NCBI GenBank assembly: GCA_035712665.1
Contig: DASTAN010000151.1
Location: forward strand, 1-51,064
Source of the DNA: Gemmatimonadales bacterium
GTDB taxonomy: Bacteria > Gemmatimonadota > Gemmatimonadetes > Gemmatimonadales > GWC2-71-9
Length of the DNA: 51,064 nt
Direction of reading: 5' to 3'
Part shown: one piece after another, positions 4,208-50,609 of the stretch
How positions within the stretch are numbered: position 1 is the first letter of the stretch
How the letters are laid out: every line of letters starts with the position of its first letter
Translations under genes and position numbers: made by a program
The notes under the pieces: generated by a model
What the model was told of the DNA's origin: nothing
Database searches by the model: none
Seen by the model: only the letters and a program-made list of their open reading frames with translations

Positions 4208-4214
4208 CCGCTGC

Positions 4215-4880: not shown

Positions 4881-4987
4881 TCTGAGATCGGAGCGTAAGG
4901 GACAAGGGACCTGGGACAAGCGACAACCGTCATCCCGAGCAACGCGAGGGATCGCGGGATGCCGAACACTCCGATCTCGGATCTCCG
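4862..4987. repeat. Heptamer-array inverted repeat R4 with internal GGGACAA-type units and a REP-like core
   Basis: GGAGATCCGAGATCAGTGATCTGAGATCGGAG (4862-4893) faces CTCCGATCTCGGATCTCCG (4969-4987). The spacer carries TAAGGGA CAAGGGA CCTGGGA units and GTCATCCCGAGCAACGCGAGGGATC. The left arm encodes the last residues of the YkgJ-like gene. Confidence 0.85.
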
Positions 4988-5005
4988 CTCTCACTTCTCC
5001 AAACA

Positions 5006-5034
5006 GAAACGGCTCCCTCATCGGGAGCCGTTTC
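5006..5034 (-). terminator. Rho-independent terminator downstream of the PEP-CTERM gene (bidirectional hairpin)
   Basis: Perfect 12-bp stem GAAACGGCTCCC / GGGAGCCGTTTC with a 5-nt loop. On the minus strand it is followed by TGTTTGG. It lies 22 nt after the stop at 5057. Confidence 0.7.
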
Positions 5035-5056
5035 GATTGTCAGGCAACGGGCCTGC

Positions 5057-6080: not shown

Positions 6081-6170
6081 GTCTCCGATCGCCGATCGCC
6101 CCGCTCCCCACGAAAAAGGGGCCCCCACCCGGGAGCCCCTCTCACCACTCACGACTGCCGACTCACCACT
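6081..6170. repeat. Short heptamer tracts R5 flanking the cox terminator
   Basis: GTCTCCGATCGCCGATCGCC (6081-6100) and CTCACCA CTCACGA CTGCCGA CTCACCA (6141-6168). The latter overlaps the ctaF stop. Confidence 0.6.
6113..6140 (-). terminator. Rho-independent terminator of the cta (cytochrome oxidase) operon
   Basis: The minus strand reads AGGGGCTCCC-GGGT-GGGGGCCCCT followed by TTTTT. This is a 10-bp stem (one G-U pair) with a 4-nt loop, about 23 nt after the ctaF stop. Confidence 0.8.
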
Positions 6171-9013: not shown

Positions 9014-9032
9014 CGTCGTCAGTCTCCCCGGC

Positions 9033-10166
9033 TCACTGCAAGGTCCGGAGGTACGCGACGAGCGCGTCACCCTCCGCGTCGGTCATCGGGAGGTTCGGCA
9101 TCTTCACGCCGACCTTCACGCCCTGCGGGTCCATGATCCAGCGCTTGAGGTTCGCGTCGGTGTTCGCCATCCACCCGGCCGCGATCATCTTCCGCGAGCC
9201 GATGCCGGCGAGGTTCGGGCCGACCGCGACCTTCGGCGTGTTCACCGACTTCACCGCGTGGCACCCGGCGCAGCCCTTCGCCGTGAAGAGCTTCTCGCCC
9301 TCGAGCGCCTTCGGATCCACCGCCTGCGCGAGGACCGCGGGCGCGGCGGAGTCGACGGCCATCGGGCCGGACGCCGCGAGCGCCGTGCTGTCGGCCATCG
9401 GGGCCGGCGGCGGCACCAGCGGCATCGTGTCGGTCTGCATCCGGGTGACCCACGCCTCGAAGTCGCCCGGCGCGTCGGCCATCACGTAGAAGAGCATCTT
9501 GCCGTGCTGGATGCCGCAGAACTCGGCGCACGCGCCCGGGTACGCCCCCGACGCCTTTGCCGTGAACCAGATCCGCGTCTCGCGGTTCGGGAAGACGTCG
9601 CGCTTCCCGGCGAACTGCGGGATCCAGAACGAGTGGAGCACGTCCACCGTCTTCATCCGGAGGTCGATCGTCCGGCCGACCGGGACGTGAAGCTCGTTCG
9701 CGGTGCGGATGCCGAGCTCCGGGTAGTGGAACTCCCACCACCACTGGTGGCCCGTCACCTCGACCTTGAGCGGCTCGCCGCCCTCGGCCGTCGCGGCCGG
9801 GATCTCGGCCGTCTTGAAGATGGTCTGCACCGTCGGCACCGCCACGAACGCGAGCACCGCGGCGGGGATCACCGTCCAGATGATCTCCACCACGGTGCTG
9901 CCGTGGATCTGCTTCGGCTCGGGATCGTCCGGCTTCCCGCGGAACTTGAAGACCGCCCAGAGCAGGCCGGCCTCCACCACCACGAAGATCACCGTCGCCC
10001 ACCAGACCGTCTTCATGAAGACGGCGTCGACCAGCTCCGCGAAGTCACCCTTCGGCGAAAGCGTCGACTGCGGATACTCCCCGGCGCAGCCTGCCAGCGC
10101 CAGGGCGAAGATCACCATCAGCGCCTGCGGCAGAAGCCGCCGCGACGGCGCGCGAAGCAGTCCCAT
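9033..10166 (-). CDS. ctaC: Cytochrome c oxidase subunit II fused to a C-terminal cytochrome c domain (caa3-type)
   Basis: ORF 9033-10217. The CuA site is HSFWIPQFAGKRD...CAEFCGIQHGKM and the C-terminal heme motif is CAGCH. I prefer ATG 10166, which gives the lipoprotein signal MGLLRAPSRRLLPQALMVIFALALAGC. GTG 10217 would place the start inside a perfect palindrome. Confidence 0.9.
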   Translation of the reverse strand: MGLLRAPSRRLLPQALMVIFALALAGCAGEYPQSTLSPKGDFAELVDAVFMKTVWWATVIFVVVEAGLLWAVFKFRGKPDDPEPKQIHGSTVVEIIWTVIPAAVLAFVAVPTVQTIFKTAEIPAATAEGGEPLKVEVTGHQWWWEFHYPELGIRTANELHVPVGRTIDLRMKTVDVLHSFWIPQFAGKRDVFPNRETRIWFTAKASGAYPGACAEFCGIQHGKMLFYVMADAPGDFEAWVTRMQTDTMPLVPPPAPMADSTALAASGPMAVDSAAPAVLAQAVDPKALEGEKLFTAKGCAGCHAVKSVNTPKVAVGPNLAGIGSRKMIAAGWMANTDANLKRWIMDPQGVKVGVKMPNLPMTDAEGDALVAYLRTLQ

Positions 10167-10200
10167 CAATGTCTGGATCCCCAATGCGGGTTCCGGTCGC

Positions 10201-10220
10201 CTTGTGAAGACGTTCACAAG
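10201..10220. promoter_or_regulatory. Perfect palindrome CTTGTGAA-GACG-TTCACAAG (CRP/FNR-family-like TGTGA-N6-TCACA site) in the cta leader
   Basis: 8-bp perfect arms read directly from the sequence. The core matches the classical CRP half-sites TGTGA/TCACA with 6-nt spacing. It sits between the predicted promoter (10238-10266) and ATG 10166. Confidence 0.5.
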
Positions 10221-10237
10221 AGGATTGAAGCGCGTGG

Positions 10238-10266
10238 AGAATAGCGCGGATCGAGCGGAGGGTCAA
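10238..10266 (-). promoter_or_regulatory. Candidate sigma-70-type promoter of the cta operon
   Basis: The minus strand reads TTGACC, a 17-nt spacer, then TATTCT. The -35 box is at 10266-10261 and the -10 box at 10243-10238. Confidence 0.45.
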
Positions 10267-10284
10267 GCAAAGTTGACCGCCGTG

Positions 10285-10920
10285 TCAACGTGGGTTGACG
10301 CCCCCGGACCACGCGCCCAGCGGGAGATCGAACGCAATCGGATCGGTCACCGTGTACGAGAAGTGCCACCACTCCTGGTCGTAGTTGACGAACCCCTCGG
10401 CGGCCATCGCCGCCACCAGACGCTGGCGATTCGCGGCCACCATCCCCGAGGCGTTCGCGGTATGGGCCCACCCCGAGAACTCGTCGTACGGCGTCCCCAT
10501 CGGCAGCTCGACCCCGGTGGCGAGGTCGACGAGCGTGAGGTCGACGGCGACCCCCTGATTGTGGCGCGAGCGACGGGCGATGTAGCCGTCGTCGAGGAGG
10601 TCGGTCCGGCCGACCCGCTCCGCCCAGTCGACCATCGCCAGCGTCGCCCGCACCGGCCGGTACCCGTCGAAGACCTTGAGGCCGAGTCCCTCGCGGGCCA
10701 GACGCGCCTGGACCCGACCGAGCGCCTCGGCCGCCTCGCGCCGGAGCAGCACGATCGGCCGCTCGTAGCCCGGGAGCGGGGCCCAGGTGAAGTTGTTCGA
10801 CCCGGCATACCGGACCTCCTGCCGGATCGCGGGGTCGATCGGCGCCAGCAGGCGGAACGCCGGGGGGCTGGCCGTGGCGCAGCCGGTGGTCAGGGCGAGC
10901 GGGAGCCAGAGGTGGCGCAT
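10285..10920 (-). CDS. ddpX: D-alanyl-D-alanine dipeptidase (VanX/DdpX, peptidase M15D), exported
   Basis: Within ORF 10285-10995. From ATG 10920 it reads MRHLWLPLALTTGCA (signal/lipobox). Also has ...VRYAGSNNF..., FDGYRP, SRHNQGVAVDLTL and WWHFSY, characteristic of the VanX family. Confidence 0.85.
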   Translation of the reverse strand: MRHLWLPLALTTGCATASPPAFRLLAPIDPAIRQEVRYAGSNNFTWAPLPGYERPIVLLRREAAEALGRVQARLAREGLGLKVFDGYRPVRATLAMVDWAERVGRTDLLDDGYIARRSRHNQGVAVDLTLVDLATGVELPMGTPYDEFSGWAHTANASGMVAANRQRLVAAMAAEGFVNYDQEWWHFSYTVTDPIAFDLPLGAWSGGVNPR

Positions 10921-10931
10921 GCGCGGGGACC

Positions 10932-11010
10932 GGTGAGGGGTAAGGAGTGAGGGGTAAGGGGGGAACGGTAATCCCGGAGCCCCCTTACCCCTCACCCCTC
11001 ACCCCTCACC
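10932..11010. repeat. Heptamer-array hairpin R6
   Basis: GGTGAGGGGTAAGGAGTGAGGGGTAAGGGGGG (10932-10963) faces CCCCTTACCCCTCACCCCTCACCCCTCACC (10981-11010). It occupies most of the divergent ddpX/greA intergenic region. Confidence 0.9.
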
Positions 11011-11032
11011 ACAGTATCTTTCTCGCCATCCA

Positions 11033-11075
11033 GTTCCACGGCCCGACCCCCCGGTTTGGCCGTGGGTCCTTTTTT
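11033..11075 (+). terminator. Terminator-like hairpin plus T6 in the greA leader
   Basis: CCACGGCC (11036-11043) pairs with GGCCGTGG (11058-11065), with inner ACC/GGT pairs, followed by GTCC and TTTTTT (11070-11075). No plus-strand gene lies upstream. It is 25 nt before the greA ATG. Confidence 0.45.
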
Positions 11076-11100
11076 CGTCCCAATGCCCAAGGAGCGGACG

Positions 11101-11577
11101 ATGATCAACGAGATGCGGGAGAAGCTCGGCAAGGAGATCGCCGAGCTGACCCACGAGCTCGCGGTGACCCTGCCCCAGGCGATCGCGACGGCCGTCGAGA
11201 TGGGCGACCTTCGCGAGAACTCGGAATACAAGTCGGCCCTCGAGCGCCAGCAGTTCGTGCAGGCGCGCCTCGGCCAGCTGCATCAGCGCCTCAACCAGCT
11301 GACCCAGCTGGCCAACACCGAGGCCCCGCTCGACCGCGTCGGCCTCGGCTCGAAGGTCGTCGTCGAGGATCTCGCCACCGGCGAGCGTGAGGAGTACACC
11401 CTCGTCCTTGCCGAGATGATGGACATCGACGCCGGGCACATCTCGCTCGCCTCCCCCCTCGGCCGTGCCCTGAAGGACACCGCGGTCGGCGATGAGGTCG
11501 CCCTGCAGCTCCCGACGATGCGCCGGAAGCTCAAGGTCATCGAGCTGGTCACCGTCCACGCGATGCTCTCGGAGTAG
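11101..11577 (+). CDS. greA: Transcription elongation factor GreA
   Basis: Within ORF 11056-11577. ATG 11101 follows AAGGAG. Contains MGDLRENSEYKSALERQQFVQARLGQL (coiled-coil with acidic tip) and a C-terminal FKBP-like domain ...GLGSKVVVEDL...ISLASPLGRALKD... Confidence 0.9.
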   Translation: MINEMREKLGKEIAELTHELAVTLPQAIATAVEMGDLRENSEYKSALERQQFVQARLGQLHQRLNQLTQLANTEAPLDRVGLGSKVVVEDLATGEREEYTLVLAEMMDIDAGHISLASPLGRALKDTAVGDEVALQLPTMRRKLKVIELVTVHAMLSE

Positions 11578-11583
11578 CCGGCC

Positions 11584-11958
11584 GTGGACGCGATCCCGAA
11601 GGAACTGCTCGTCGTCGGCGACCGTGTGCTCATCACTCCGGAAGAGGGCGACGAGCAGCGGACCCGGGTCGGGCTCTACCTCCCGGCCACCGCGATCGAC
11701 GCCCAGCAGGTCCAGAGCGGGATGATCATCGCCACCGGCCCCGGCGACCCGCTCCCCGATCCGTCGGTGTTCGGTGACGAGCCGTGGCGGGCCGAGGAGC
11801 GGACCCCGCGCCACCGCCCGATGCAGGCCCGGGTTGGCGACACCGCCATCTTCTTCCGGAAGGCGGCGGTCGAGATCTCCTTCGAGGAGCGGCGCTATCT
11901 CGTCGTCCCCCAGGCGGCGATCCTGGTCCTCGTCCGCGATCGAATCCCGCTCCCCTAA
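11584..11958 (+). CDS. GroES/Cpn10-family protein (atypical, with insertion)
   Basis: GTG start 6 nt after greA. Shows the Cpn10 pattern LLVVGDRVLITPEEGDEQRTRVGLYLPATA...SGMIIATGPG...ARVGDTAIFF...YLVVPQAAILVLV. Confidence 0.65.
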   Translation: MDAIPKELLVVGDRVLITPEEGDEQRTRVGLYLPATAIDAQQVQSGMIIATGPGDPLPDPSVFGDEPWRAEERTPRHRPMQARVGDTAIFFRKAAVEISFEERRYLVVPQAAILVLVRDRIPLP

Positions 11959-11991
11959 CCAGCGGCGTGCCCCCGTGCGCTATCTTGGCGC

Positions 11992-13638
11992 ATGAGCACA
12001 TTCCCGTCCCTCGGCCTCGCGCCCGCCCTCTGCGACGCGCTGGCCACCCTCGGCTACGAAGAACCAACCCCGATCCAGGCCGAGGCGATCCCGGCGCTGC
12101 TCGCCGGGCGCGACCTCCTCGGTCAGGCGGCCACCGGCACCGGCAAGACCGCCGCCTTCGCCCTCCCGCTGCTGCAGCGCCTCGGCACCGGCAGCGTGGC
12201 ACCGTCGCGCCCCACCATCCTCGTCCTCGCCCCGACCCGCGAGCTCGCGATGCAGGTCGCCGAGGCGTTCCACCGCTACGGCCGCGCGATGGGTTCGTCG
12301 GTGGTCCCGATCTACGGGGGGCAGGCGTTCGACCAGCAGATCCGCATCCTCCGCCGCGGCGTGCACGTCGTCGTCGCGACGCCGGGACGCGCGCTCGATC
12401 ACCTGCGTCGCGGCACCCTCGATCTCGCCAACCTCGGTGCGATCGTCCTCGACGAGGCCGACGAGATGCTCGACATGGGCTTCGCCGACGAGATCGAGGC
12501 GATCCTCGATGCGGCGCCAGAGGTGCGACAGACGGCACTCTTCTCCGCGACGATGGCGCCCCGGATCGCGAAGATCGCCGAGCGGCACCTGAGCGATCCG
12601 GTGCGCATCAGCATCGCGCGCGCCGCCCCGATCGCGGGCGAGGCGCCGAAGGTCCGCCAGACGGCGTACCTCATCGCGCGGCCGCACAAGGTCGCAGCCC
12701 TGGGGCGCATCCTCGACCTCGAGTCGCCGGAGCTGGCGATCGTCTTCTGCCGCACGCGCACCGAAGTCGACACCCTCACCGAGACGCTGGGCGGGCACGG
12801 CTATCGTGCCGAGGCGCTCCACGGCGGGATGACGCAGGACGCGCGCGATCGCGTGATGAAGCGCACGCGCGCGGGCAACGTCGACCTCCTGATCGCGACC
12901 GACGTCGCCGCGCGCGGGCTCGACATCGAGCAGCTCTCGCACGTGGTGAACTACAACGTCCCCGAGTCGCCGGCCGCCTATGTCCATCGCATCGGACGCA
13001 CCGGGCGAGCGGGGCGTGAGGGCGTCGCGATCACGCTGGTCGAGCCGCGCGAGCATCGCCTGCTCCGGAACATCGAGGCGGCGACGCGCTCGCGCGTGAC
13101 GATGGCCCAGCTGCCCACGGTGATGGACGTGCAGGCGAAGCGCCTTGGCCTCACCACCGAGGCGGTGCGCGAGGCGATCGCGGCGGGTGGCACCGAACGG
13201 TACCGCGCGGTGGTCGAGGCGCTCACCGACGCGCACGACCTGATGGAAATCGCGATGGCGGCGCTGCAGCTCGCCCACGAACGGGAGCACGGCACCGGCA
13301 CCGACGAGGACGAGGCGATCGACCTCGCCCCGCCGGCGGCACCGAAGGGCGACAAGGCGAAGGGCGCGCCGCGCCCGAAGCGGAACGCCGGCTTCTCGCG
13401 GATCTACATCGGGGCGGGCCGCAAGAACAACCTGCGCCCGGCCGACCTGGTCGGGGCGATCGTCAACGAGGCGAAGGTGCCGGCGAAGGAGATCGGCACG
13501 ATCGAGATCACCGATCGCTTCGCGCTGGTCGAGCTGCCGGAGGAGAAGGTGAACGGCGTGATCGCGGCGTTGCGTGCCAGCACCATCAAGGGGAAGCGGC
13601 TCACCGTGCGGCGTGACCTCGCCGGCGGTTCGCGCTAG
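11992..13638 (+). CDS. DEAD-box ATP-dependent RNA helicase (DeaD/CsdA-like with DbpA-type C-terminal RNA-binding domain)
   Basis: Shows the Q-motif, ATGTGKTAAF, DEAD (LDEADEML), SAT and HRIGRTGRAG. The C-terminus reads FSRIYIGAGRKNNLRPADLVGAI...IEITDRFALVELPEE. Confidence 0.93.
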   Translation: MSTFPSLGLAPALCDALATLGYEEPTPIQAEAIPALLAGRDLLGQAATGTGKTAAFALPLLQRLGTGSVAPSRPTILVLAPTRELAMQVAEAFHRYGRAMGSSVVPIYGGQAFDQQIRILRRGVHVVVATPGRALDHLRRGTLDLANLGAIVLDEADEMLDMGFADEIEAILDAAPEVRQTALFSATMAPRIAKIAERHLSDPVRISIARAAPIAGEAPKVRQTAYLIARPHKVAALGRILDLESPELAIVFCRTRTEVDTLTETLGGHGYRAEALHGGMTQDARDRVMKRTRAGNVDLLIATDVAARGLDIEQLSHVVNYNVPESPAAYVHRIGRTGRAGREGVAITLVEPREHRLLRNIEAATRSRVTMAQLPTVMDVQAKRLGLTTEAVREAIAAGGTERYRAVVEALTDAHDLMEIAMAALQLAHEREHGTGTDEDEAIDLAPPAAPKGDKAKGAPRPKRNAGFSRIYIGAGRKNNLRPADLVGAIVNEAKVPAKEIGTIEITDRFALVELPEEKVNGVIAALRASTIKGKRLTVRRDLAGGSR

Positions 13639-21615: not shown

Positions 21616-21713
21616 TAGGCCTTAGGCCTTAGGCCTTTAGCCTTAGGCCTTAGGCCTTAGGCCTTGAGCCTTGAGCCCTGAGGCCTGAGGCCTGAGCCCT
21701 GAGCCCTGAGACC
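21616..21713. repeat. 14-unit tandem heptamer array R8 (TAGGCCT drifting to TGAGCCC)
   Basis: Units read TAGGCCT x3, TTAGCCT, TAGGCCT x3, TGAGCCT, TGAGCCC, TGAGGCC x2, TGAGCCC x2, TGAGACC. It starts 5 nt after the S15 peptidase stop. Confidence 0.95.
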
Positions 21714-33806: not shown

Positions 33807-33880
33807 CGGAGACCGGAGACCAGCGATCGGAGATCAGGGGGTGCACCTCCGATCTCCGATCGCCGATCGCTCATCTCCGG
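33807..33880. repeat. Heptamer-array hairpin R11
   Basis: CGGAGACCGGAGACCAGCGATCGGAGATCAGGGGG - TGCA - CCTCCGATCTCCGATCGCCGATCGCTCATCTCCG. It lies between convergent genes, so it may act as a bidirectional terminator. Confidence 0.9.
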
Positions 33881-35841: not shown

Positions 35842-35899
35842 GGCGATCGGCGATCGGAGATCCGAGGGCGCACCCTCCGATCTCCGATCGCCGATCGCC
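35842..35899. repeat. Heptamer-array hairpin R12
   Basis: GGCGATCGGCGATCGGAGATCCGAGGG - CGCA - CCCTCCGATCTCCGATCGCCGATCGCC, a near-perfect palindrome. Confidence 0.92.
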
Positions 35900-38895: not shown

Positions 38896-39387
38896 CTACT
38901 GCGTCGGCGCCATCGCGCGGATCTGCGCGACGACCGAGTCGGCGAGCGCGTTCGGAATCGGGATCGTGAGGTTGTACTGCACGATCTTCCATCCGGCCTC
39001 GTCCTTCCGGAGCACGCCGGTCCCGCGGGTCTCGCCGTAGTTCGCGTTCTGCAGCCGCTCGTCGAACCACGCGGTGTGCCCGTCGGCATCAAGGAAGACG
39101 TGGCGCTCGGTCTTGTCGTACGTCCATCCCTTGGACTGGCTGGCGTAGCCGCGGAACTGGTCCACCGTCCACCGCTCGGTGGCGTCGGTGCCGAAGAAGA
39201 CCGCGTCGGTCGCGAAGAGATCGAAGTAGCGGTCGAAGTCCCCGGCCGCGGCCAGGGTGTGCAGCGCGGTGAGGACGCTGTCCACCGCGGCGGTCTCGGT
39301 CGCGGTGTCGACGGCGGGCGGTTCGGCCGCGGGGGCGCACGCCCCGACCAGCGAGGCGGCGAGCAGCAGGGCAACGTGACGGCGCAT
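38896..39387 (-). CDS. NTF2/SnoaL-like (DUF4440-type) lipoprotein
   Basis: 163 aa from ATG 39387, reading MRRHVALLLAASLVGAC (lipobox). Contains ...AAGDFDRYFDLFATDAVFFGTDATERW...GWKIVQYNLTIPIPN, an NTF2-fold pattern. Its start overlaps the stop of the LLM gene. Confidence 0.55.
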   Translation of the reverse strand: MRRHVALLLAASLVGACAPAAEPPAVDTATETAAVDSVLTALHTLAAAGDFDRYFDLFATDAVFFGTDATERWTVDQFRGYASQSKGWTYDKTERHVFLDADGHTAWFDERLQNANYGETRGTGVLRKDEAGWKIVQYNLTIPIPNALADSVVAQIRAMAPTQ

Positions 39388-40433
39388 CAGGGACTCCCGG
39401 CGGTGGTGGGATCGAGGAGGGCGTGCACGCGCGGGATCACCGCGGTGCCATAGAGGTCGATGCAGCGCAGCAACGCGTCGTGCGGCAGCGTCCCGGCGCT
39501 GTACTTGAGGTCGAACCGTTGGACGCCGAGCGCCCCGACCGTCGCCGCGATGCGCTGCGCGACCGTGTCGGGGGAGCCGACGTAGAGCGATCCGTGCTCG
39601 CACTCGTGATCGAACTGGCCACGGGACATCGGTGCCCAGCCGCGCTCGGCACCGATGCGGGCCATCATCTCGCGGAACGGCGGCCAGAAGGTCTCGCGCG
39701 CCGCGGCATCGGTGTCGGCGACGAAGCCGGGCGAATGCATCCCCACCGGCAGCACCGGGCGCCCGAACTCGCCGAGCGAGCGGTGATAGAGCTCGACATA
39801 GGGCACGAACCGCCGGGGATCGCCGCCGATGATCGCCAACATCAGCCCGAGGCCGTGGCGCGCGGCACGCACCACCGACTTCGGGGAGCCGCCGACACCG
39901 ACCCAGGTGGTGAGCGGCGTGCGCTCGACGGTGGGATAGACGCGCTGCGCGACGAGGGGGCCGCGCGTCTGGCCCCGCCACGTCACCGCTTCCTGGGTCA
40001 GCAACTGCACGAGAAGCTCGAGCCGCTCCTCGAAGAGGAGCTCGTATGCCTCGAGCGGCAGCCCGAAGAGCGGGAACGACTCGGTGAACGAGCCGCGGCC
40101 GACGATGATCTCCGCGCGGCCGTTCGCGACGGCATCGAGCGTCGCGAACCGCTGGAAGACACGTACCGGGTCATCGGATGACAGCACCGTCACCGCGCTG
40201 CCGAGCCGGATCCGCTCGGTGCGCGCCGCGATCGCCGCGAGCACGACCTCCGGCGCGGAGATCGCGAAATCGGCGCGGTGATGCTCGCCGACCCCGAAGA
40301 ACGCGACACCGACGCGGTCGGCCAGTTCCGCCTCGGCGATCACGTCGCGGATGACCTGCGCGTGCGACCGGACGGTGCCATCCGCATCGCGGGTGATGTC
40401 ACCGAAGGTGTCGAGGCCGAGCTGGAGCGCCAT
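39387..40433 (-). CDS. LLM-class (luciferase-like) flavin-dependent oxidoreductase
   Basis: 348 aa from ATG 40433, reading MALQLGLDTFGDITRD.... Contains ...FGVGEHH... and ...LLAIIGG.... The 51 codons upstream in ORF 39387-40586 are translated heptamer repeat (LTTHDSR). Confidence 0.8.
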   Translation of the reverse strand: MALQLGLDTFGDITRDADGTVRSHAQVIRDVIAEAELADRVGVAFFGVGEHHRADFAISAPEVVLAAIAARTERIRLGSAVTVLSSDDPVRVFQRFATLDAVANGRAEIIVGRGSFTESFPLFGLPLEAYELLFEERLELLVQLLTQEAVTWRGQTRGPLVAQRVYPTVERTPLTTWVGVGGSPKSVVRAARHGLGLMLAIIGGDPRRFVPYVELYHRSLGEFGRPVLPVGMHSPGFVADTDAAARETFWPPFREMMARIGAERGWAPMSRGQFDHECEHGSLYVGSPDTVAQRIAATVGALGVQRFDLKYSAGTLPHDALLRCIDLYGTAVIPRVHALLDPTTAGSP

Positions 40434-40436
40434 GAA

Positions 40437-40489
40437 AGTCGTGAGTCGTGAGTCGTGAGTCGTGAGTCGTGAGTCGTGAGTCGTCAGAC
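40437..40489. repeat. Tandem heptamer array R13: (GTGAGTC) x6 perfect
   Basis: Six identical units at 40441-40482 with degenerate flanks. It begins 4 nt upstream of the LLM start codon and lies about 95 nt downstream of the regulator stop. Confidence 0.95.
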
Positions 40490-40582
40490 GTGCTGGTCGA
40501 GGACGATCTGCCACCCTTGGGCCGGGTCCCCGGCGAACGGGGCGGAGCCGAGCGCCTCGCAGAACTGGCGCGACGCGACAGG

Positions 40583-42637
40583 TCATCCCGGTGATGGTGC
40601 TTCAGCCTCGAGCATCTGGGCAGTGGCGTGATCGACCATGGCGAGATCCTCGGGCGTGTGGGCCCACCGCGCCGCGAGATCGAGCCAGTGGAGCGCCTCG
40701 GCGTTCGCCCCGACGGTCCGTGCCGCCTCCATCGCACGCATCGCGTGCGTGTAGGCGAGACCGGCCTCCTCGCCACGATCAGCATGGTAGGCCACCTCAC
40801 CGGCGTCCGGCGACTGCCGGTTGATCCGCGCCACTTCCACCGTCGCAAGCGCGATCGCTCGATGGACCTCGCGACGTCGGGCGGCCCCCACGGACGCCAG
40901 CACGACCGACGCGATGAGCGGATGCGCACAGACGTACCGGCTGTCAGCCTCGCCGACCAGGCAGCGTTGCCGCAGGGCATCGCAGACCATTGCGACTCGG
41001 AGGCGTGACTGGCCGTGGACGAGCGAGAGCACATCGGCACCGCAGCCGTGATCGTGGGCCGCGATGGTCGTCAGCAAGGCCTGCTGCTCGCGCGGGAGCC
41101 GCCCGATGCGTTGGGCAATGGCATCGTGCACCGACGGCGGAACCGCACAGCCCAGGACGTCGGCATCCTCGCGATCCGAGAGCCGCCACTCCCCGGTCGC
41201 GGCATCGATGGAGATGCAGCCCTCGGCGAGCCACGTCTTGAGCAGCTCGACGACGTAGAACGGGTTGCCGTGCGTGATTTCGTGCACGCGCCGGGCCAGG
41301 CGATGTGCTGCCGACGCGGAGCGCATGCGCCCGAGGTCTCGGACGATCTCCTCGACATCGGCCACCGCCAGCGGTGCCAGCTCGGCGCGCACGGCCCCGG
41401 GCAGGGTCCGCAGCGCGCGCGCGACGCGGAGCCCCGGTGCATCGTGTTCCTCGTGCCCCAGCGCCAGGGCCACGACCCAGAGCACCGGTGCGCGATCCAT
41501 GCGGCGCACGAGGTAGTGCAGCATCGCCGTGGATTCGGGGTCGCACCAATGGAAGTCGTCGATCACCACCAGAAGTGGTTGGTCGTCGGCGATCGCGGTC
41601 AGCACGTCGGCCACGGCCTCTTCGAGAATGGCAAAGCCCGGTTCGCCCTCATGGACGGCGAGACTCGGGAAGCGCCGACGCACGTCAGGGAGCACCCGCG
41701 CGATGATGCCGAGTGCGATCGGGTCTGCCCCCGCCACACCGGGACACGCGAGCGCCCCGCGCAACAATTCCAGCATCAACCCGATCTGCGTGGTGCGCTC
41801 GGACTCGTAGGCCTGCGTGCGAAGCACCTGACCATGCTGCGTCGACACCCACCGTGCGAAGTCGTCGGTCAGGCGCGTCTTTCCCGTGCCGATCTCGCCC
41901 TCGATGACCGCGACCCGTGGCGTGCCGTGCGTGACCCGATCCCATCCCTGGAGCAGCGTCTCCCACACGGGCGCGCGTCCGGCAAGCCCGGCCTTGAAGT
42001 CCGGTGGCACCGCCTGCCAGCGATCGCCGTCCGATGCAGGGGGCGTTGGCTGCGCAGCGAGGAGATTCGCCTCGGCCATGAGCCGAGCGGCCTCGGTCGG
42101 GTCGGAGGCGACCAGCATCCACCGTTCCCCGATTGCGAGAGCCTGCCGCCAGTCCCCGCGTGCAATCGCCTCGGCACCCGCCGCGGCCGCCACCCGACCG
42201 TACCGGGCGATCAAGTCGCCTCGAACGGCATCGGCCCAGTCGTCGAAGTCCGGACAGTGTCGTGGAGTGAACCCTTCGAGGAACCGTCCCGCCTCGATCG
42301 CGACGGCCGCGGACGGACTGGTCTTGGCGAATTCGAGAAACTGCCGGGCGTCACACGACACCCCGTCCACGAGACCGACACGCGCCCGCTCGATCTGGAT
42401 GTGGTCACCGAGATGCTGGCGCAGCGTCTTCAGCGCCTGGCGAAGGGAGGCGTTCGCCTTGCCATCGGGTGACTCGCCCCACAGCAACGATGCCAAATGC
42501 TCACGGGAATGGAATCCCGGTTCCATCGCGAGGTACGCGACCAGCGCCATCGCCTTCGTCGGCAAGGCCACGGGGGACGATGGGTCCGGGATGTGAATGG
42601 CCGGCGGACCACAGAGCGTGAGCTGGATCGTGGGCAT
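40583..42637 (-). CDS. SARP/AfsR-like transcriptional regulator (OmpR-type wHTH + BTAD + P-loop NTPase + helical C-terminal domain)
   Basis: The N-terminus ...KAMALVAYLAMEPGFHSREHLASLLWGE...LRQALKTLRQHLG... is a wHTH, followed by a BTAD-like helical region. The Walker A motif is GEIGTGKTRL and Walker B-like is LLVVIDDFHW. It is divergent from the peptide genes. Confidence 0.8.
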   Translation of the reverse strand: MPTIQLTLCGPPAIHIPDPSSPVALPTKAMALVAYLAMEPGFHSREHLASLLWGESPDGKANASLRQALKTLRQHLGDHIQIERARVGLVDGVSCDARQFLEFAKTSPSAAVAIEAGRFLEGFTPRHCPDFDDWADAVRGDLIARYGRVAAAAGAEAIARGDWRQALAIGERWMLVASDPTEAARLMAEANLLAAQPTPPASDGDRWQAVPPDFKAGLAGRAPVWETLLQGWDRVTHGTPRVAVIEGEIGTGKTRLTDDFARWVSTQHGQVLRTQAYESERTTQIGLMLELLRGALACPGVAGADPIALGIIARVLPDVRRRFPSLAVHEGEPGFAILEEAVADVLTAIADDQPLLVVIDDFHWCDPESTAMLHYLVRRMDRAPVLWVVALALGHEEHDAPGLRVARALRTLPGAVRAELAPLAVADVEEIVRDLGRMRSASAAHRLARRVHEITHGNPFYVVELLKTWLAEGCISIDAATGEWRLSDREDADVLGCAVPPSVHDAIAQRIGRLPREQQALLTTIAAHDHGCGADVLSLVHGQSRLRVAMVCDALRQRCLVGEADSRYVCAHPLIASVVLASVGAARRREVHRAIALATVEVARINRQSPDAGEVAYHADRGEEAGLAYTHAMRAMEAARTVGANAEALHWLDLAARWAHTPEDLAMVDHATAQMLEAEAPSPG

Positions 42638-42672: not shown

Positions 42673-42713
42673 GTTTTCACGATCTCCGGAAGGGTTTTCA
42701 CGATTCTTTCACG
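42673..42713 (+). promoter_or_regulatory. Three direct TTTCACG heptamer repeats (starts 42675, 42696, 42707; spacing 21 and 11 nt) in the divergent promoter region
   Basis: GTTTTCACGAT occurs twice (42673-42683 and 42694-42704), plus TTTCACG at 42707-42713. The phasing of one and two helical turns matches the way SARP regulators bind direct heptamers. Confidence 0.5.
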
Positions 42714-42783
42714 GCCCCTCCCCATCGTTGGCGCAGTTGGTTCGCTGGTGCCACAGCCCATACCCCTCGCAAGGAGCATCGCC

Positions 42784-42936: not shown

Positions 42937-43001
42937 CACCGTCGGCCGCCGATTCCACGATCCCAGAACGCACCATCACCACCCCTGCAAGGAGCCCGAC
43001 G

Positions 43002-43160: not shown

Positions 43161-43165
43161 TCGAC

Positions 43166-43224
43166 CCGCGACCGACACCGGTCGCGGACGAGGCCGGCTG
43201 GGGCACTGCCCTGGCCGGCCTCGT
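43166..43224 (+). terminator. Two tandem hairpins after the peptide genes (candidate attenuator/partial terminator)
   Basis: Hairpin 1: CCGCGACCG-ACAC-CGGTCGCGG (43166-43187). Hairpin 2: ACGAGGCCGGC ... GCCGGCCTCGT (43188-43224), with inner GGGCA/TGCCC pairing, followed by GTGTCGTGTGG. Confidence 0.5.
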
Positions 43225-43300
43225 GTCGTGTGGCCAATTGCGCATGGCCGCAGGGTGATGCAATTTCGAGCATCTCTCCTTCCTTGACCAGCCCATCCTC

Positions 43301-45142
43301 GTGACAGCTCCCCTTCCCGACGAGTCCTCCCGACTCCGTCGCCTGCGGCAGGTCTCGGTCGCGCTGTTTGCGGGCCTCGACCAGACACGTGCCGTCAGCA
43401 CCGCACTCGAGGGCGCGCGGGAGCTGCTCGGCGCGGATGGCGCCTCGTTCTGGGCCCGGGAGGGGCAGGCGCTGACCTGCCAGCTGGCCCACGGCGCCGA
43501 CAGCGAGGCGCTCCTCGGGACCACGTGGCCCGCCGTGGTGCTGCTCACGCCGGACGTGGCGGGGCTCGTGCTCGTCACGCCGCTCGTGATCGATGACACC
43601 GAGGTCGGTGCGCTGCGCGTCACCCGAGGCGCAGACGAGTCCGCTCAGCCCTTCTCGACAACCGACGCCGTCCTCCTTCAGGACCTCGCAGACAGCCTGT
43701 CGGCAGCGCTCGCGACGGCGATCGCGGCGGAGGCGATGGCCGGGCCTGCCCCGCCGCAGGACTTGACGCTCGTGCTCCAGATGAGCCAGGAGATCGGTTC
43801 CTCGCTCGACCTGGACCGGGTGTGCAAGACCGTGGTGAACCTCGCCGCGCGGGCGGTCTCGTTCGATCGCGGGGCGGTCGCCCTGTACGACAACGGGCGC
43901 TGCGAAGTCCGGGCCGTGGCCGGCAGTGACGTGCACGATGCGGCCTCGCCCGCGATGCAGGACCTTGCGGTGCGCGCGGGATGGGCCGCCGGTGTCGGCA
44001 CGCGATTCTACCTGTCGGATCGGCACGCGCCGCGAACCGATGCGGAGCGGATCTTCCTCCAGATCTTCGCGCAGGACCTCGAGACCGCCGGCGTCGAAAG
44101 CGGGCTGTACCTCCCGCTCCGGGATGATGAGGGCGTCGTCGGGATCCTCGTCTTCGAGGCGGAGCGCGCGGATTTCGTCACCGAGGCGCAGCAGGAACTG
44201 GTGACGATCCTCGCCAACCAGACAACCGTGGCGATCCGGAACGCCCAGCTCTATGCGCGCGTGCCGATGGCGGATGCGCTGAGCTCCCTGACCGTGAAGC
44301 GGCAGCAGTTCCTCGCGATCCCTCGTCGCAAGCGACGCCTGGCCGGCGGCCTCGCGCTGGTGGTGCTGGCGTTGTTGTCATTGGTGCGCTGGCCGCTGCG
44401 CGTCCCGGCGGTGGCGCCGACCTTCCGGCCGGTGCGACAGGCCGCCGTGCGCCCGGCTGTCCCTGGCGTGGTGGAGGAGGTCTTCGTGCGCGAGGGCAGC
44501 ATGGTCGCGGCAGGTGCGCCCGTCGCGCGGTTGCGCGATCTGGAGGCACGGGCCACCCGCGCGGCGTTGGCGGCCGACATCGCCGCGGCCGAGCGGGCCG
44601 CGTCGCTCGCCGCCGCCCGGCAGGATGCCGCGAGCGAGCGCCTGCAGCGGCTGCGGGCCGCGACACTTCGCGAGGAACTGGCGGTCGAGACCGCGCGGGC
44701 CGAGCAGTTGGTGCTGCGCGCCCCGATCGCCGGGATGGTCCTCACGCCCCGCCCGGAGGAGCGCGTCGGGGCGGGCGTGGCCCCGGGCGAGACGATCATG
44801 TCGCTCGGACAGCTCGATTCGCTGGATCTCGACTTCGGCGTGGCGCAGCACGAGGTCGATCGGGTAAGCATCGGTGCCACGGTCCGCCTGCGCGTGGATG
44901 CCCTCCCCTCGCGAACCTTCACCGGGACCGTGCATCGCGTCGGTGCGATGGCGACGATGCACGGCACGGAGCCGCTCTTCCCGATCCTCGCACGCATCGC
45001 CAACCCGGAGGGGCATCTCCGGCCTGGCATGGCACCGCACGCACGCGTGCTCACCGCCCCGATGTCCGTCCTCGGACGGGCCGTGCGCACGCCGTGGCGT
45101 CGACTGCAGCTCTTCTGGTGGAGGATCTGGTCATGGGCTTGA
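43301..45142 (+). CDS. GAF-GAF-TM-HlyD fusion protein (cytoplasmic tandem GAF domains, one TM helix, periplasmic membrane-fusion/HlyD-type domain)
   Basis: 613 aa with a GTG start. GAF-like segments include ...LLGADGASFWAREGQ...IDDTEVGALRV... and ...SLDLDRVCKTVVNLAARAVSFDRGAVALYD...LYLPLRDDEGVVGILVFEA.... The TM helix is LAGGLALVVLALLSLV. The HlyD part is ...VVEEVFVREGSMVAAGAPVARL...coiled coil...LRAPIAGMV...GTVHRV.... Confidence 0.75.
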   Translation: MTAPLPDESSRLRRLRQVSVALFAGLDQTRAVSTALEGARELLGADGASFWAREGQALTCQLAHGADSEALLGTTWPAVVLLTPDVAGLVLVTPLVIDDTEVGALRVTRGADESAQPFSTTDAVLLQDLADSLSAALATAIAAEAMAGPAPPQDLTLVLQMSQEIGSSLDLDRVCKTVVNLAARAVSFDRGAVALYDNGRCEVRAVAGSDVHDAASPAMQDLAVRAGWAAGVGTRFYLSDRHAPRTDAERIFLQIFAQDLETAGVESGLYLPLRDDEGVVGILVFEAERADFVTEAQQELVTILANQTTVAIRNAQLYARVPMADALSSLTVKRQQFLAIPRRKRRLAGGLALVVLALLSLVRWPLRVPAVAPTFRPVRQAAVRPAVPGVVEEVFVREGSMVAAGAPVARLRDLEARATRAALAADIAAAERAASLAAARQDAASERLQRLRAATLREELAVETARAEQLVLRAPIAGMVLTPRPEERVGAGVAPGETIMSLGQLDSLDLDFGVAQHEVDRVSIGATVRLRVDALPSRTFTGTVHRVGAMATMHGTEPLFPILARIANPEGHLRPGMAPHARVLTAPMSVLGRAVRTPWRRLQLFWWRIWSWA

Positions 45143-46116
45143 GGCTGTTCGCCCCGTGGGGTGCCGTGTGCGTCGTCCTTGCCACCCCGATCCTGGCGTG
45201 CGGCGGCACCCCGCCGACGCCGGACGCGGCGGCGCAATCCGCGGACACCGCGCCATTCCAGGCCGAATCAGCCACGACGGAGGTCGGGCTCGCCTTGCCG
45301 GCGCAGGCCTACGTGGAGCACGATGCGGTGATCGCCGCCCGATCGTCGGGGGTGGTCGAATCGTTGTTCGTCGACATCGGCAGTCCGGTCGAGGCCGGCG
45401 CGCGCCTCGCCCAGATCGAGCAGGCGGATCAACGCATCGAACTGGCGCGCGCGGAAGCGGCGCGCGACCAGGGGGCGCGCACCGTGGCCCGCGCCCGTGC
45501 GCTTCGGGACGCGCAAGGCATCAGCGCCGCCGAGGCGGAGGAGATCGAGTTCGCCTTCCGACGCGCGGACCTCGAGGTGCAGCGCGCCCGCCGGGCGATC
45601 GAACTGACCCGCATCGTGGCGCCCTTCGCGGGCCGGGTCGTGGCGCGCTACGTCCAGCCCGGACGCCTCGTGAGCGCTGGCGACACGTTGTTCCGCATCG
45701 CCGAGGCGGAGCCGCTGCTCGCCCGGGTCCGGGTGCCCGAGGCCGCCGCCCGCGGCGTGCGCGTGGGAACGGCCATCGAGGCCGTCACGGAGCGCGGCGA
45801 CCGCATCACCGGATCGGTGCAGACCGTGGCCCCGGCGCTCGACGCGGCGAGCGGCACGCGAGAGGTGATCGTCCGGCTGGGCCGGTCCGCCGCCCTGATG
45901 CCGGGCTCCGCGATCTCGGTGCTGGTGGGGCGCGAATCGCGCCGAGTCCTGGCGGTTCCCGCCGAGGCGATCAGTGCCGACGGCTTCGTGCTGGTGCGCA
46001 ACGGCGACCGGACGGTGATGCGCGCCGTGGTGCTGGGCCAGCGGCTGGGGGACGGGCGAGTCGAGGTCATCAGCGGCGTGCACGCCGGCGAGCGCCTCGC
46101 CCGGCCCGCACGGTAG
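45133..46116 (+). CDS. Membrane-fusion (efflux adaptor, HlyD/RND-MFP family) lipoprotein
   Basis: Within ORF 45094-46116. ATG 45133 follows GGAGGA and overlaps the upstream gene by 10 nt. Reads MGLRLFAPWGAVCVVLATPILAC (lipobox). Contains ...GVVESLFVDIGSPVEAGARLAQIE...coiled coil...IVAPFAGRVVARYV...GSVQTVAPALDAASGTREV.... Confidence 0.8.
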   Translation: MGLRLFAPWGAVCVVLATPILACGGTPPTPDAAAQSADTAPFQAESATTEVGLALPAQAYVEHDAVIAARSSGVVESLFVDIGSPVEAGARLAQIEQADQRIELARAEAARDQGARTVARARALRDAQGISAAEAEEIEFAFRRADLEVQRARRAIELTRIVAPFAGRVVARYVQPGRLVSAGDTLFRIAEAEPLLARVRVPEAAARGVRVGTAIEAVTERGDRITGSVQTVAPALDAASGTREVIVRLGRSAALMPGSAISVLVGRESRRVLAVPAEAISADGFVLVRNGDRTVMRAVVLGQRLGDGRVEVISGVHAGERLARPAR

Positions 46117-46122: not shown

Positions 46123-48177
46123 GTGATGCGCGGACCAACCTTGGTGCCCGGGGTGGTGCTCATCGAGCAGAACTACCGCGACCAGCTGACGTTCGTGCTG
46201 AAGGATCCCCAAACCCAGAAGTACTACCGCTTTCGACCGGCCGAGGCCGAGATCATCCGCACCTTCGACGGCAGCCGCACCGTCGAGGAGATCGTGCAGC
46301 ACCTTGCCGACCGCGGACGCGCCCTCTCGACGGCCACCATCGAGGGGTTCGCCCGCACGCTGTCGCGCCTCGGGCTGCTGGAGCGCACGCTCGCGGAGCG
46401 CACCGAGCACCAGCTCGAGCGGTTGCGCACCGAGCGCCGGCAACAGCGCTCGCTCTTCCGCGGCGAGTGGCTGCGCATGCGGTGGGGCTTCACCGGAGCC
46501 AACGTCTTTTTCGACCGATGGATGCCCGCCGTCCGCTGGTGCTTCACGCCCGCGTTCGTGGCGGGCTCGCTGCTGCTCTTCCTGGCCTATGCGTGGATCA
46601 TCGCGAGCCAGTGGTCCGACTTCCAGGCGGCTGTCGCGGCCACGTTCGCGCCGGCGGTCTTCTCCTGGGGCACCGTCGGCATGCTGGTCGCCACCCTGCT
46701 GGTGCTCACGCTGATCCACGAACTGGGCCACGGCTTCGCGTGCAAGCACTTCGGCGGCGAGGTACACGAGCTTGGCTTCATGCTGCTCTACTTCACGCCG
46801 GCGTTCTACTGCAACGTGAACGATGCGTGGAGTTTCCCCGCCCTCCGCTCCCGCCTGTGGGTCACGCTCGCCGGCACCTGGATCGAGCTGACGGTCTCCG
46901 CATTGGCCGCGATCGTCTGGTTCGTGGTCCACCCCGACACGGCGCTGTCGCAATGGGCTCTTGCGGCGATGCTGATCGGCGGCTTCATGGCGATCGTCAC
47001 CAACGGCAACCCCTTGTTGCCGCTCGATGGATACTTCGCTCTCTCGGACTATCTGGAGATGCCGAACCTGCGGCATCGGGCGAGCGCGCACGTGACGTGG
47101 TGGGTTCGGCGGCACGTCCTGAAGCTTGACCTGCCGGAGCCGGACGTGGCGCCGAACGAGCGCCGCACCCTGCTCCTGTATGGCTTCGCCGCGATGGCGT
47201 ACATCACCGGGCTCGCGGTCCTCATCGGCAGCAAGGTGATCCATTGGGTGGCGGCGATGGCCGGATTCGCGGTGGCCGCGCTCGTCCTGCTCGTGGTGCT
47301 GGCCACGATCCTCCCTCGCATGACGGCGTTCTGGCGAGGTTCGCTGGCGGCACTGCGTGCGCAGGTCGGCGGAACCCGGTGGCGGCAGGGGCGGCGCTGG
47401 CTCGGCATCACCGGCGGCCTCACGCTGCTCATCTCGGCAGTGCTCCCGTGGCGACTGCAAACTTTCGGCGAGTTCGTGGTGGCACCGCAGCGGTCGGCCG
47501 TCCTGCTCGCCCCCGATAGCGGGGTGGTGGTAGCGGTATACCCGACCACCGGCACCTCTGTGTCGGCCGGCACACCGGTGCTGCGTCTGCTCGATTTCGG
47601 GCTGGTGCAGGCCTCGGCTAGCCAGCGCCGCCTCGGGGACTCCCTCGGTCTGGAGGCGCTCGTGGCACGAGCACGGGCCCTGCCGGGCATCGAGGCGGTG
47701 CGGCAGGCGGAGGCCGCATCCGCCGGGGCGAACCTCGCACGGACGAACCTCCGCCGTGACCAAGGCGTCGTTCGTGCACCGTTCGACGGGACAGTGATCA
47801 CAACGCGACCCGAGGAGCTTCTCGGGCGACAGGTCGCCCCCGGTGACACGCTGCTGGTCATCGCCGACCTGATGGGCCTCGAGGCGCGGATCAGCCTCCG
47901 GTCGGCCGGAGCCTCCCAGATCGTCCCAGGCGGTCGCGTGCGGCTGATCTCGGCGCAGGCGGCCGACCACCCCGTGGAAGGAGTCGTTCGCGAGGTGGCC
48001 CCCGCGGGCATCGGCGCCGCGGGCGGGGCGGTCGAGGTCCGGATGACCCTTGCCGACGATGCGCCGCTTCGGGCGGGAGCCACGGGGATGGCGCGCGTGG
48101 AGTGGGGGCGGTCGACCCTCCTGGGCTCCCTCTGGTGGGCGGTGCGCTCCCGCATTCGCAACGACCTGCTGCTCTAG
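46123..48177 (+). CDS. Tri-partite protein: PqqD-like (RRE-type) N-terminal domain + M50 site-2-protease membrane core + C-terminal HlyD-like domain
   Basis: 684 aa. The N-terminus LTFVLKDPQTQKYYRFRPAEAEIIRTFDGSRTVEEIVQHLADRG follows the PqqD pattern. HELGH is at 46717-46731 and NPLLPLDG at 47008-47031, which are the two M50 signature motifs within TM helices. The C-terminal part has ...VVVAVYPTTGTSVSAGTPVLRL...VRAPFDGTVI...GVVREVAP... (biotinyl/lipoyl-like and barrel segments of HlyD proteins). Confidence 0.75.
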   Translation: MMRGPTLVPGVVLIEQNYRDQLTFVLKDPQTQKYYRFRPAEAEIIRTFDGSRTVEEIVQHLADRGRALSTATIEGFARTLSRLGLLERTLAERTEHQLERLRTERRQQRSLFRGEWLRMRWGFTGANVFFDRWMPAVRWCFTPAFVAGSLLLFLAYAWIIASQWSDFQAAVAATFAPAVFSWGTVGMLVATLLVLTLIHELGHGFACKHFGGEVHELGFMLLYFTPAFYCNVNDAWSFPALRSRLWVTLAGTWIELTVSALAAIVWFVVHPDTALSQWALAAMLIGGFMAIVTNGNPLLPLDGYFALSDYLEMPNLRHRASAHVTWWVRRHVLKLDLPEPDVAPNERRTLLLYGFAAMAYITGLAVLIGSKVIHWVAAMAGFAVAALVLLVVLATILPRMTAFWRGSLAALRAQVGGTRWRQGRRWLGITGGLTLLISAVLPWRLQTFGEFVVAPQRSAVLLAPDSGVVVAVYPTTGTSVSAGTPVLRLLDFGLVQASASQRRLGDSLGLEALVARARALPGIEAVRQAEAASAGANLARTNLRRDQGVVRAPFDGTVITTRPEELLGRQVAPGDTLLVIADLMGLEARISLRSAGASQIVPGGRVRLISAQAADHPVEGVVREVAPAGIGAAGGAVEVRMTLADDAPLRAGATGMARVEWGRSTLLGSLWWAVRSRIRNDLLL

Positions 48178-50508: not shown

Positions 50509-50609
50509 CGTGAGTCGTGAGTCGTGAGTCGTGCGTCGTGAGTGAACGGTGAACGGGAGCGATCCTGTTCACCGTTCGCTTTTGGCGGTGCACCGCCTCA
50601 CCCCTCACC
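50509..50609. repeat. Composite heptamer region R14 (GTGAGTC units, GTGAACG hairpin, CCCCTCA units)
   Basis: GTGAGTC x3 plus GTGCGTC (50510-50537), the GTGAACGGTGAACGGG / CCTGTTCACCGTTCGC hairpin, then CCTCACCCCTCACC (50596-50609), which overlaps the tautomerase stop. Confidence 0.9.
50542..50584 (+). terminator. Rho-independent terminator of katG, built from GTGAACG heptamers
   Basis: GTGAACGGTGAACGGG-AGCGAT-CCTGTTCACCGTTCGC followed by TTTT (50580-50583). Confidence 0.75.

Follow-up and report, generated by a model that had tools for sequence, protein, structure and literature searches.

A fusion of a leader-recognition domain, a site-2 protease core and a HlyD-type adaptor in a Gemmatimonadales peptide cassette

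Daptide biosynthesis depends on MpaP (DapP), an enzyme in which a RiPP (ribosomally synthesised and post-translationally modified peptide) recognition element (RRE) is fused N-terminally to an intramembrane site-2 protease. The leader that MpaP removes bears the motif ELExMEAP, in which Pro occupies position -1; the cores are hydrophobic helices with an invariant C-terminal Thr, and the clusters also encode MpaB, MpaC, MpaD and MpaM together with ABC transporters (bioRxiv 10.1101/2023.03.08.531785). The M50 protease EpeP (YydH) of the Bacillus subtilis epipeptide operon has been suggested both to cleave and to export its peptide, and further membrane metalloproteases of this clan, TglG and TmoG (pearlins) and TmcP (TMcins), also process ribosomal peptides. 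In peptidase-containing ABC exporters, which combine a HlyD-type adaptor and TolC and act on double-glycine leaders, the leader-removing protease is physically part of the envelope-spanning export apparatus. Here we describe a gene in a 51,064-nucleotide (nt) stretch of DNA from a Gemmatimonadales bacterium (contig DASTAN010000151.1 of GenBank assembly GCA_035712665.1, positions 1 to 51,064; hereafter the window), whose single product joins an RRE, an M50 protease core and a HlyD-type adaptor and is paired with open reading frames (ORFs) that share the leader tag LE(x)RIAP.

The fusion gene occupies 46123..48177 on the forward strand and encodes 684 residues from a GTG start, as defined by its ORF, Pfam and NCBIfam matches, an AlphaFold2 (AF2) model and its homologues. 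Translation from the ATG one codon further on gives a 683-residue form that is 100% identical to a public protein (P0001). Hidden Markov model (HMM) matches and fold comparison divide the chain into three modules, all given here with forward-strand coordinates: an RRE/PqqD-like leader-recognition domain (residues ~5-88, 46135..46386), a site-2/M50 core comprising transmembrane (TM) helices TM1-TM6 (residues ~118-405, 46474..47337) and, after TM7 (residues ~425-441, 47395..47445), a HlyD/MacA-type adaptor module predicted to be periplasmic (residues 442-665, 47446..48117). The best NCBIfam match, over residues 16-405, is to the daptide intramembrane metalloprotease NF041824 (daptide_HExxH; 201.6 bits, E 2e-59, cutoff 300). 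As this model was covered from position 11 to 373 of its 379, the known daptide enzyme has no adaptor. The YydH/LiaK epipeptide protease model matches residues 173-320 (E 8e-12, cutoff 225). In Pfam the adaptor module exceeds the curated cutoffs of both HlyD_3 (residues 549-652, 59.5 bits, cutoff 22.2) and HlyD_D23 (residues 445-645, 31.5 bits, cutoff 30); Peptidase_M50 (PF02163; residues 188-296) scores 21.5 bits, under its cutoff of 27.2, and PqqD (residues 25-65) 19.9 bits (E 1e-3), under its cutoff of 23.4. The PF02163 match is precomputed for many close homologues of the fusion protein.

Both M50 signatures are present, HExxH as HELGH at residues 199-203 (nt 46717-46731) and NxxPxxxLDG as NGNPLLPLDG at residues 294-303 (nt 47002-47031). 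His199, Glu200, His203, Asn294, Pro297, Asp302 and Gly303 are invariant in an alignment of 58 sequences, comprising the fusion protein and 57 homologues at 45-65% identity. In this site-2-type zinc protease the predicted active site consists of His199, Glu200, His203 and Asp302; in M50 enzymes the second motif contributes the third zinc ligand. A sequence search of the PDB with the whole fusion protein gave no match. The profile of the N-terminal domain gave seven weak matches, four of which are RRE proteins: PqqD (3g2b, E 0.016), PaaA (E 0.021), TfuB1 and PqqCD.

The AF2 model of the full-length protein, calculated from the 58-sequence alignment, has a mean predicted local distance difference test (pLDDT) score of 85.7 and a predicted TM-score (pTM) of 0.49; a second model, of residues 1-425, has a pLDDT of 85.1. 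In both models DSSP assigns strands at about residues 12-18, 21-28 and 33-37, followed by helices at about 39-47, 54-63 and 70-82, giving the three-stranded sheet and three helices of the winged-helix RRE fold. When the 1-425 model was compared with solved structures by Foldseek, the top six matches were the lasso-peptide RREs TbiB1 (5v1v, 5v1u) and TfuB1 (6jx3), all leader-bound, with target-normalised TM-scores of 0.66-0.74, root mean square deviations of 2.7-3.8 Å and a probability of 1.00. Other matches of this model, to TRP channels and BAR domains, were dismissed as helical noise. The membrane core of the AF2 model is helical, with a beta-hairpin at residues 214-232; HExxH lies at the cytoplasmic end of helix 182-209 (TM2), and NxxPxxxLDG follows helix 274-294. 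In the C-terminal unit, lipoyl and beta-barrel strands are split by two 26-residue helices (492-517 and 521-546) that form an alpha-hairpin, and no separate membrane-proximal domain is seen in the adaptor module of the model. Foldseek matched the full model to MacA, AcrA, MexA, ZneB and EmrA in the PDB (E 1e-13 to 1e-9). A first-pass annotation made from the sequence had proposed a PqqD-like N-terminal domain, an M50 core carrying both signatures and a HlyD-like C-terminus, and had suggested HMM assignment and structure prediction as checks; all three domain calls hold, the closest structural counterparts of the N-terminal domain being TbiB1 and TfuB1.

Seven hydrophobic helices are predicted in the fusion protein, in an N-in/C-out orientation. 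Across the 58 homologues the predicted cytoplasmic segments carry a median of 28, 3, 8 and 7 Lys plus Arg residues, and the predicted periplasmic segments a median of 1, 0, 1 and 1. TM7 is hydrophobic in all 58 (median 17-residue Kyte-Doolittle value 2.24) and follows a loop with a median of 7 Lys plus Arg. By the seven helices and this positive-inside bias, the cytoplasmic face would hold the RRE together with the ends of TM2 and TM4 that carry HExxH and LDG, respectively, and the HlyD module would lie in the periplasm. The first-pass annotation had seen its model as incompatible with a recognition domain and an active site on opposite faces; by the charge bias both are predicted to lie on the cytoplasmic face, with a periplasmic C-terminus.

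The fusion gene is the last of a co-directional set on the forward strand. The set begins with two precursor genes, P1 (42784..42936, 50 residues, core RFFGI) and P2 (43002..43160, 52 residues, core RWFGSMM), whose leaders both end in SELEERIVP and which both have AAGGAG 7-8 nt 5' of the ATG. These are followed by a gene for a 613-residue GAF-GAF-TM-HlyD protein (43301..45142; Pfam GAF in two stretches, HlyD_D23 and HlyD_3), which is kept in related loci, and by one for a periplasmic adaptor with a signal peptide and a lipobox-like ILAC (45094..46116, likely ATG start at 45133). The N-terminus of the latter is MGLRLFAPWGAVCVVLATPILACGG, and it matches TIGR01730 (RND_mfp) at 149 bits, above cutoff. 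Divergent from the set, on the reverse strand, lies a gene for a SARP-type (Streptomyces antibiotic regulatory protein) regulator with a winged helix and an AAA_16/STAND part (40583..42637; Pfam Trans_reg_C and AAA_16), which in homologous cassettes appears as BTAD plus AAA_16.

A scan of one genome per species gave 127 relatives, of which the best 80 were used as related loci and, with the window, make up 81 sources. Gemmatimonadota make up almost all of these 80; the weak end includes Longimicrobiales and a single locus each from Planctomycetota and Deltaproteobacteria. The lipobox adaptor is conserved in 80 of the 81 sources scanned, and the regulator was seen in 42, a count limited by the available flank. 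In two homologous contigs, gene calls and Pfam matches gave the BTAD/AAA_16 regulator, a precursor of about 50 residues, GAF-HlyD, HlyD and the fusion protein, and the flanking genes beyond the cassette are unrelated between the two. The conserved Gemmatimonadota cassette consists of the divergent regulator, one to three precursors, GAF-HlyD, the lipoprotein HlyD and RRE-M50-HlyD. Neither the two contigs nor ORF clustering of the 80 loci revealed a modifying enzyme, an ABC or RND transporter or an outer-membrane factor in it, and Pfam and NCBIfam found no C39 or ABC domain in any cassette protein. Besides the regulator, the clustering yielded no further conserved gene other than, in 15 loci, a downstream ORF cluster.

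P1 and P2, which the first-pass annotation had taken for the peptide substrates, are real ORFs conserved in related loci. We collected 104 precursors from 58 of the 81 sources, the remaining sources having mostly too little flank. The Gemmatimonadota leader follows the consensus ...vRIxLTpEQKxxvxxaTGKdAEAxElsVxELEERIAP. The cores are hypervariable, with 3-22 residues (median 7; none shorter than three) and only two Cys overall; position 2 is Lys or Arg in about half of them and position 3 is hydrophobic. The last residue is Thr in only 3 of the 104 cores, and is Ile in P1 and Met in P2. Three loci share an identical core, GMAYRPWQGLD, at a leader identity of 84-87%, and the core RMVAP is unchanged at a leader identity of 68%. 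Some cores are thus at least as conserved as the variable part of the leader, which argues that the core is the selected product. A precursor-profile search of public proteins recovered at least 3,956 proteins of about 50 residues, unnamed or misnamed. NCBIfam and Pfam gave no family match for the precursors or for the tagged cargo of other phyla.

The fusion protein itself has more than 1,065 close homologues. At E <= 1e-30, a profile search of 1.84 billion representative proteins returned 5,191 clusters (50% identity); among the 150 best clusters, most contain proteins of 680-950 residues that are matched end to end by the fusion profile. With full-length homologues in thousands of clusters, and on many closed contigs, a gene-fusion or assembly artefact is ruled out. 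The family spans Gemmatimonadota, Acidobacteriota, Verrucomicrobiota, Nitrospirota, Ignavibacteriota, Planctomycetota and others, and public annotation names its members no more precisely than "HlyD family adaptor" or "putative peptide zinc metalloprotease". Blastocatellia, Verrucomicrobiia, Ignavibacteriota, Acidobacteriota, Nitrospirota and Eisenbacteria have longer relatives, in which the daptide-protease signature is also sub-threshold and the adaptor part aligns over nearly the whole type-I-secretion HlyD model.

ORFs adjoining the homologues carry the same tag near their N-terminus in Verrucomicrobiia, Nitrospirota, Ignavibacteriota, Acidobacteriota, Eisenbacteria and Planctomycetota. 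In these phyla it takes forms such as LxVEELEERIAP and LELEKLEeRIAP, stands on a short N-terminal leader and is followed either by 23-88 residues of low-complexity sequence rich in Gly, Asn, Pro and Ser or, in the Planctomycetota locus, by a large protein. Tagged ORFs that adjoin RRE-M50-HlyD homologues were found in loci L084 (2086-3739, five in tandem), L086 (613-960), L089 (5717-5896), L090 (5666-5839) and L091 (5568-5819), and directly downstream of the Planctomycetota homologue lies a tagged, acidic, repeat-rich protein of 1,491 residues, a putative cargo of very large size, that begins MSEQKTKGKKKVSGIDVGKKKLEDRIAP (L077, 8186-12661). The tag is rare, with 124 matches in the 2.2 million six-frame residues of all loci, and 121 of these are on the strand of the protease gene. 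No ABC transporter or outer-membrane factor was found nearby in the other-phyla loci examined.

Two of these loci hold other genes near the homologue. Directly downstream of the fusion gene, L086 (3791-4801) and L091 (8596-9591) encode proteins of 331-336 residues that are 51% identical between Ignavibacteriota and Acidobacteria; they have no match in Pfam, NCBIfam or the PDB, and that subtype may include them as an additional conserved component. In the acidobacterial L091 a TPR-CHAT protein and a subtilase (Peptidase_S8) are encoded upstream of the tagged ORF (867-5520).

Compared with the described systems, the fusion protein shares with MpaP/DapP the order of an N-terminal RRE followed by an M50 core, and the cassette shares with daptides an acidic ELExxxAP leader motif with Pro at -1 and several precursors per locus. 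It differs from daptides in having no modifying enzymes, three HlyD-type proteins, cores of 3-22 residues and a variable last residue. The likeness to peptidase-containing ABC exporters is one of logic only: there a C39 cysteine protease is attached to an ABC ATPase and recognises a double-glycine leader, whereas here an M50 protease is attached to an adaptor, no ATPase is present, no C39 or ABC domain was detected and the leader ends in RIAP or RIVP, the motif being LEERIAP in place of GG. Maturation of a small ribosomal peptide is likewise the task of the M50 intramembrane protease EpeP/YydH, but this enzyme has no RRE and no adaptor, its host is monoderm and its substrate is modified by a radical-SAM epimerase. 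TglG and TmoG are carboxypeptidases, and TmcP, a four-TM DUF3267 enzyme, cleaves a precursor inserted in the membrane; in none of them is an RRE combined with an adaptor. The lipoyl, alpha-hairpin and beta-barrel fold is common to the fusion module and MacA, AcrA, MexA, ZneB and EmrA. MacA-type adaptors, however, are separate proteins anchored by lipid or by a single TM helix and serve a dedicated transporter, whereas this module is the C-terminus of a seven-TM protease and the ABC, RND or MFS operon partner usual for adaptors was found neither in the conserved cassette nor in the other-phyla loci examined.

The first-pass annotation had known of no characterised example of such a protein. This does not hold for the RRE and site-2 protease half, which is known from daptide MpaP, just as the adaptor fold is known and the logic of leader-guided cleavage and export is known from peptidase-containing ABC exporters. 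It does stand for the adaptor fusion and its cassette: we found no description of an M50-HlyD or RRE-M50-HlyD protein in the searchable literature, which omits most subscription journals, no co-mention of "HlyD" and "site-2 protease" in the searchable full texts, and only unrelated text for "LEERIAP". The covalent RRE-M50-adaptor fusion, a cassette lacking both ATPase and modifying enzyme, and the cross-phylum LE(x)RIAP tag are thus undescribed in the searchable literature and the curated family libraries.

Sequence elements between the regulator and the machinery genes bear on how the cassette may be controlled. A motif scan found direct TTTCACG(A/G) boxes on the forward strand at 42675-42683, 42696-42704 and 42707-42714, before P1, and at 42953-42961, before P2. 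The form TTYCACGAT occurs in three exact copies in the 51-kb window, against 0.29 expected, two of them upstream of P1 and one upstream of P2; with the third box, TTTCACGG, the spacing before P1 is 21 + 11 nt. An (A/T)TTCACG array with spacing of about 21-22 + 11 nt also precedes the first precursor in the Gemmatimonadota loci L001, L002, L004, L012, L040, L060 and others, and these boxes are likely to be binding sites for the divergent SARP/BTAD regulator. A scan of the cassette for sigma-70 promoters found no sites. Between the P2 stop codon and GAF-HlyD lies a double stem-loop (43162..43228, forward strand; -58.5 kcal/mol, z = -6.1 against shuffles), which probably serves as an attenuating terminator separating the precursor genes from those of the machinery. 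So stable a structure fits attenuation, by which precursor transcripts would be kept in excess over those of the machinery.

We consider it moderately probable that the fusion protein carries out processing and export for a small ribosomal-peptide cassette, the mechanism being leader-guided cleavage and export. The RRE would dock the leaders of P1 and P2, as its homology and its strict co-occurrence with LEERIAP-tagged ORFs suggest, and the protease would cut directly after the Pro of ELEERIVP, by analogy with daptide MpaP, in the register E(-8) L(-7) E(-6) E(-5) R(-4) I(-3) V/A(-2) P(-1). Such a cut would free the C-terminal peptides RFFGI and RWFGSMM. The fused adaptor and its two paralogues, GAF-HlyD and the lipoprotein HlyD, might then form a periplasmic conduit through which the peptides leave the cell. 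From the architecture it is reasonable to suppose that cleavage and export are coupled, and the double role suggested for EpeP offers a precedent. The SARP/STAND regulator probably drives transcription of the precursors through the TTTCACG repeats, and the cytoplasmic GAF domains probably gate the apparatus. At the weakest step of this scheme, the products may be signals rather than antibiotics, which is favoured by the short, Cys-free cores, the lack of a modifying enzyme in the cassette and the dedicated STAND-type regulator.

Several observations weigh against this scheme. We know of no structural precedent for export through or alongside an M50 core, and an energy source, an inner-membrane translocator and an outer-membrane factor are all missing from the conserved cassette. 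The Pfam M50 and PqqD scores of the fusion protein are under their curated cutoffs, and no solved site-2 protease is among the top 50 Foldseek matches of the 1-425 model, so membership of M50 stands on the two invariant motifs and the HMM matches. The pTM of 0.49 makes the domain arrangement uncertain, and the cleavage site is placed by analogy. A core of 3-5 residues would be an unusually small secreted product, and RRE docking alone would require a leader far shorter and less conserved than the Gemmatimonadota one, so that the latter may have a function of its own. The missing energy source is what would be expected under the main rival, in which the fusion protein only cleaves and unlinked genes supply the ABC, MFS or RND transporter and the TolC-like channel on which the adaptors dock. 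All characterised adaptors of this fold serve an inner-membrane transporter, usually with an outer-membrane factor, MacA, AcrA, MexA and EmrA come from transporter complexes, and ABC transporters co-occur with daptide clusters. Yet a covalent fusion of adaptor and protease is hard to explain if the partner is another membrane protein, and no linked transporter gene was found in the 80 Gemmatimonadota-dominated loci or in the other-phyla loci examined; we regard unlinked partners as rather unlikely.

The long leader lends itself to another explanation, that of regulated proteolysis with an intracellular output, in which the conserved N-terminal 45 residues are functional, for instance as a partner of the SARP/STAND regulator or of GAF, the tail is a cleavage handle and the adaptors anchor the protein or sense the envelope. 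Some 30 conserved leader residues (vRIxLTpEQKxxvxxaTGKdAEA) are indeed absent from the short-leader relatives of other phyla, site-2 proteases are classically signalling enzymes, and conserved members of the cassette include a regulator and a GAF sensor. A mere handle does not fit several paralogous precursors per locus with differing cores, cores that are in some cases more conserved than their leaders and never shorter than three residues, or the larger post-tag parts of other phyla, which reach 1,491 residues; it also leaves three periplasmic adaptor modules without a role, and we judge this explanation improbable. We give very little credence to a daptide-like or otherwise modified RiPP whose enzymes are encoded elsewhere, with the fusion protein as the MpaP orthologue. 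The daptide protease is the best NCBIfam match and the leader motif is in the same register as ELExMEAP, but 201.6 bits falls short of the 300-bit equivalog cutoff, the invariant terminal Thr of daptide precursors has a counterpart in only the three cores noted above, and none of the loci has a conserved decarboxylase, aminotransferase or methyltransferase nearby. An ORF that by its sequence looks like a luciferase-like flavin oxidoreductase (39387-40586, reverse strand) does abut the regulator, and luciferase-like reductases occur in some daptide clusters; this ORF is not conserved beside the cassette in related loci, however, and so probably lies outside the system. Assignment as a daptide cluster was rejected on the score, the lack of a C-terminal Thr and the lack of MpaB/C/D/M-type enzymes conserved near the locus.

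Leader-guided cleavage and export may be extended into a wider proposal, which we put forward as a doubtful one. RRE-M50-HlyD proteins would form a hitherto unrecognised, ATPase-independent secretion route in diderms of many phyla, in which the cytoplasmic RRE reads the tag, a ring of protease cores tethered to adaptors removes it and gives passage through the inner membrane, and the adaptor bridges to the outer membrane. Cargo sizes would extend from three to more than 1,400 residues, and in Gemmatimonadota the cargo would be families of very short linear signals read by the co-encoded STAND/SARP regulator, that is, peptide quorum sensing in a Gram-negative phylum. Whatever its mechanism, the family is very large, as the 5,191 clusters and the precursor count indicate, and we found no studied member of it. 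If cleavage and export is correct, leader-tagged peptides and proteins would have a new route across the Gram-negative envelope, LEERIAP would be a simple sequence tag for finding cargo in genomes, and thousands of short peptides from cassettes without modifying enzymes would be in play in abundant, poorly studied soil bacteria. The compact cassette of five or six genes and the exact predicted product masses make the hypothesis directly testable.

Around the cassette, ORFs resemble formate-tetrahydrofolate ligase, a luciferase-like oxidoreductase and KatG, as judged from their sequences. The ten largest ORFs of window positions 1-36,000 (met-zincin, PBP1, amidohydrolase, M28 peptidase and others) include no transporter or TolC gene. 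An anti-phage defence system was considered and discarded, as PADLOC yielded nothing meaningful. In L066, the sole locus inspected from the 15 with the downstream ORF cluster, this region (8718-12164) holds two ORFs, one of 856 residues, that by sequence alone look like Ser/Thr kinases.

Elsewhere in the window heptanucleotides are tandemly repeated at scattered sites, several of them visibly at gene ends, and fall into four families: (GTGAGTC)n at 40437-40484 and 50509-50533; (CCCCTCA)n at 184-213, 2876-2891 and 10987-11010; (GGCCTTA)n at 21616-21665; and (CGATCGC/CGATCTC)n at 6082-6100, 33853-33870 and 35842-35899. They resemble the short tandemly repeated heptamers of cyanobacteria.

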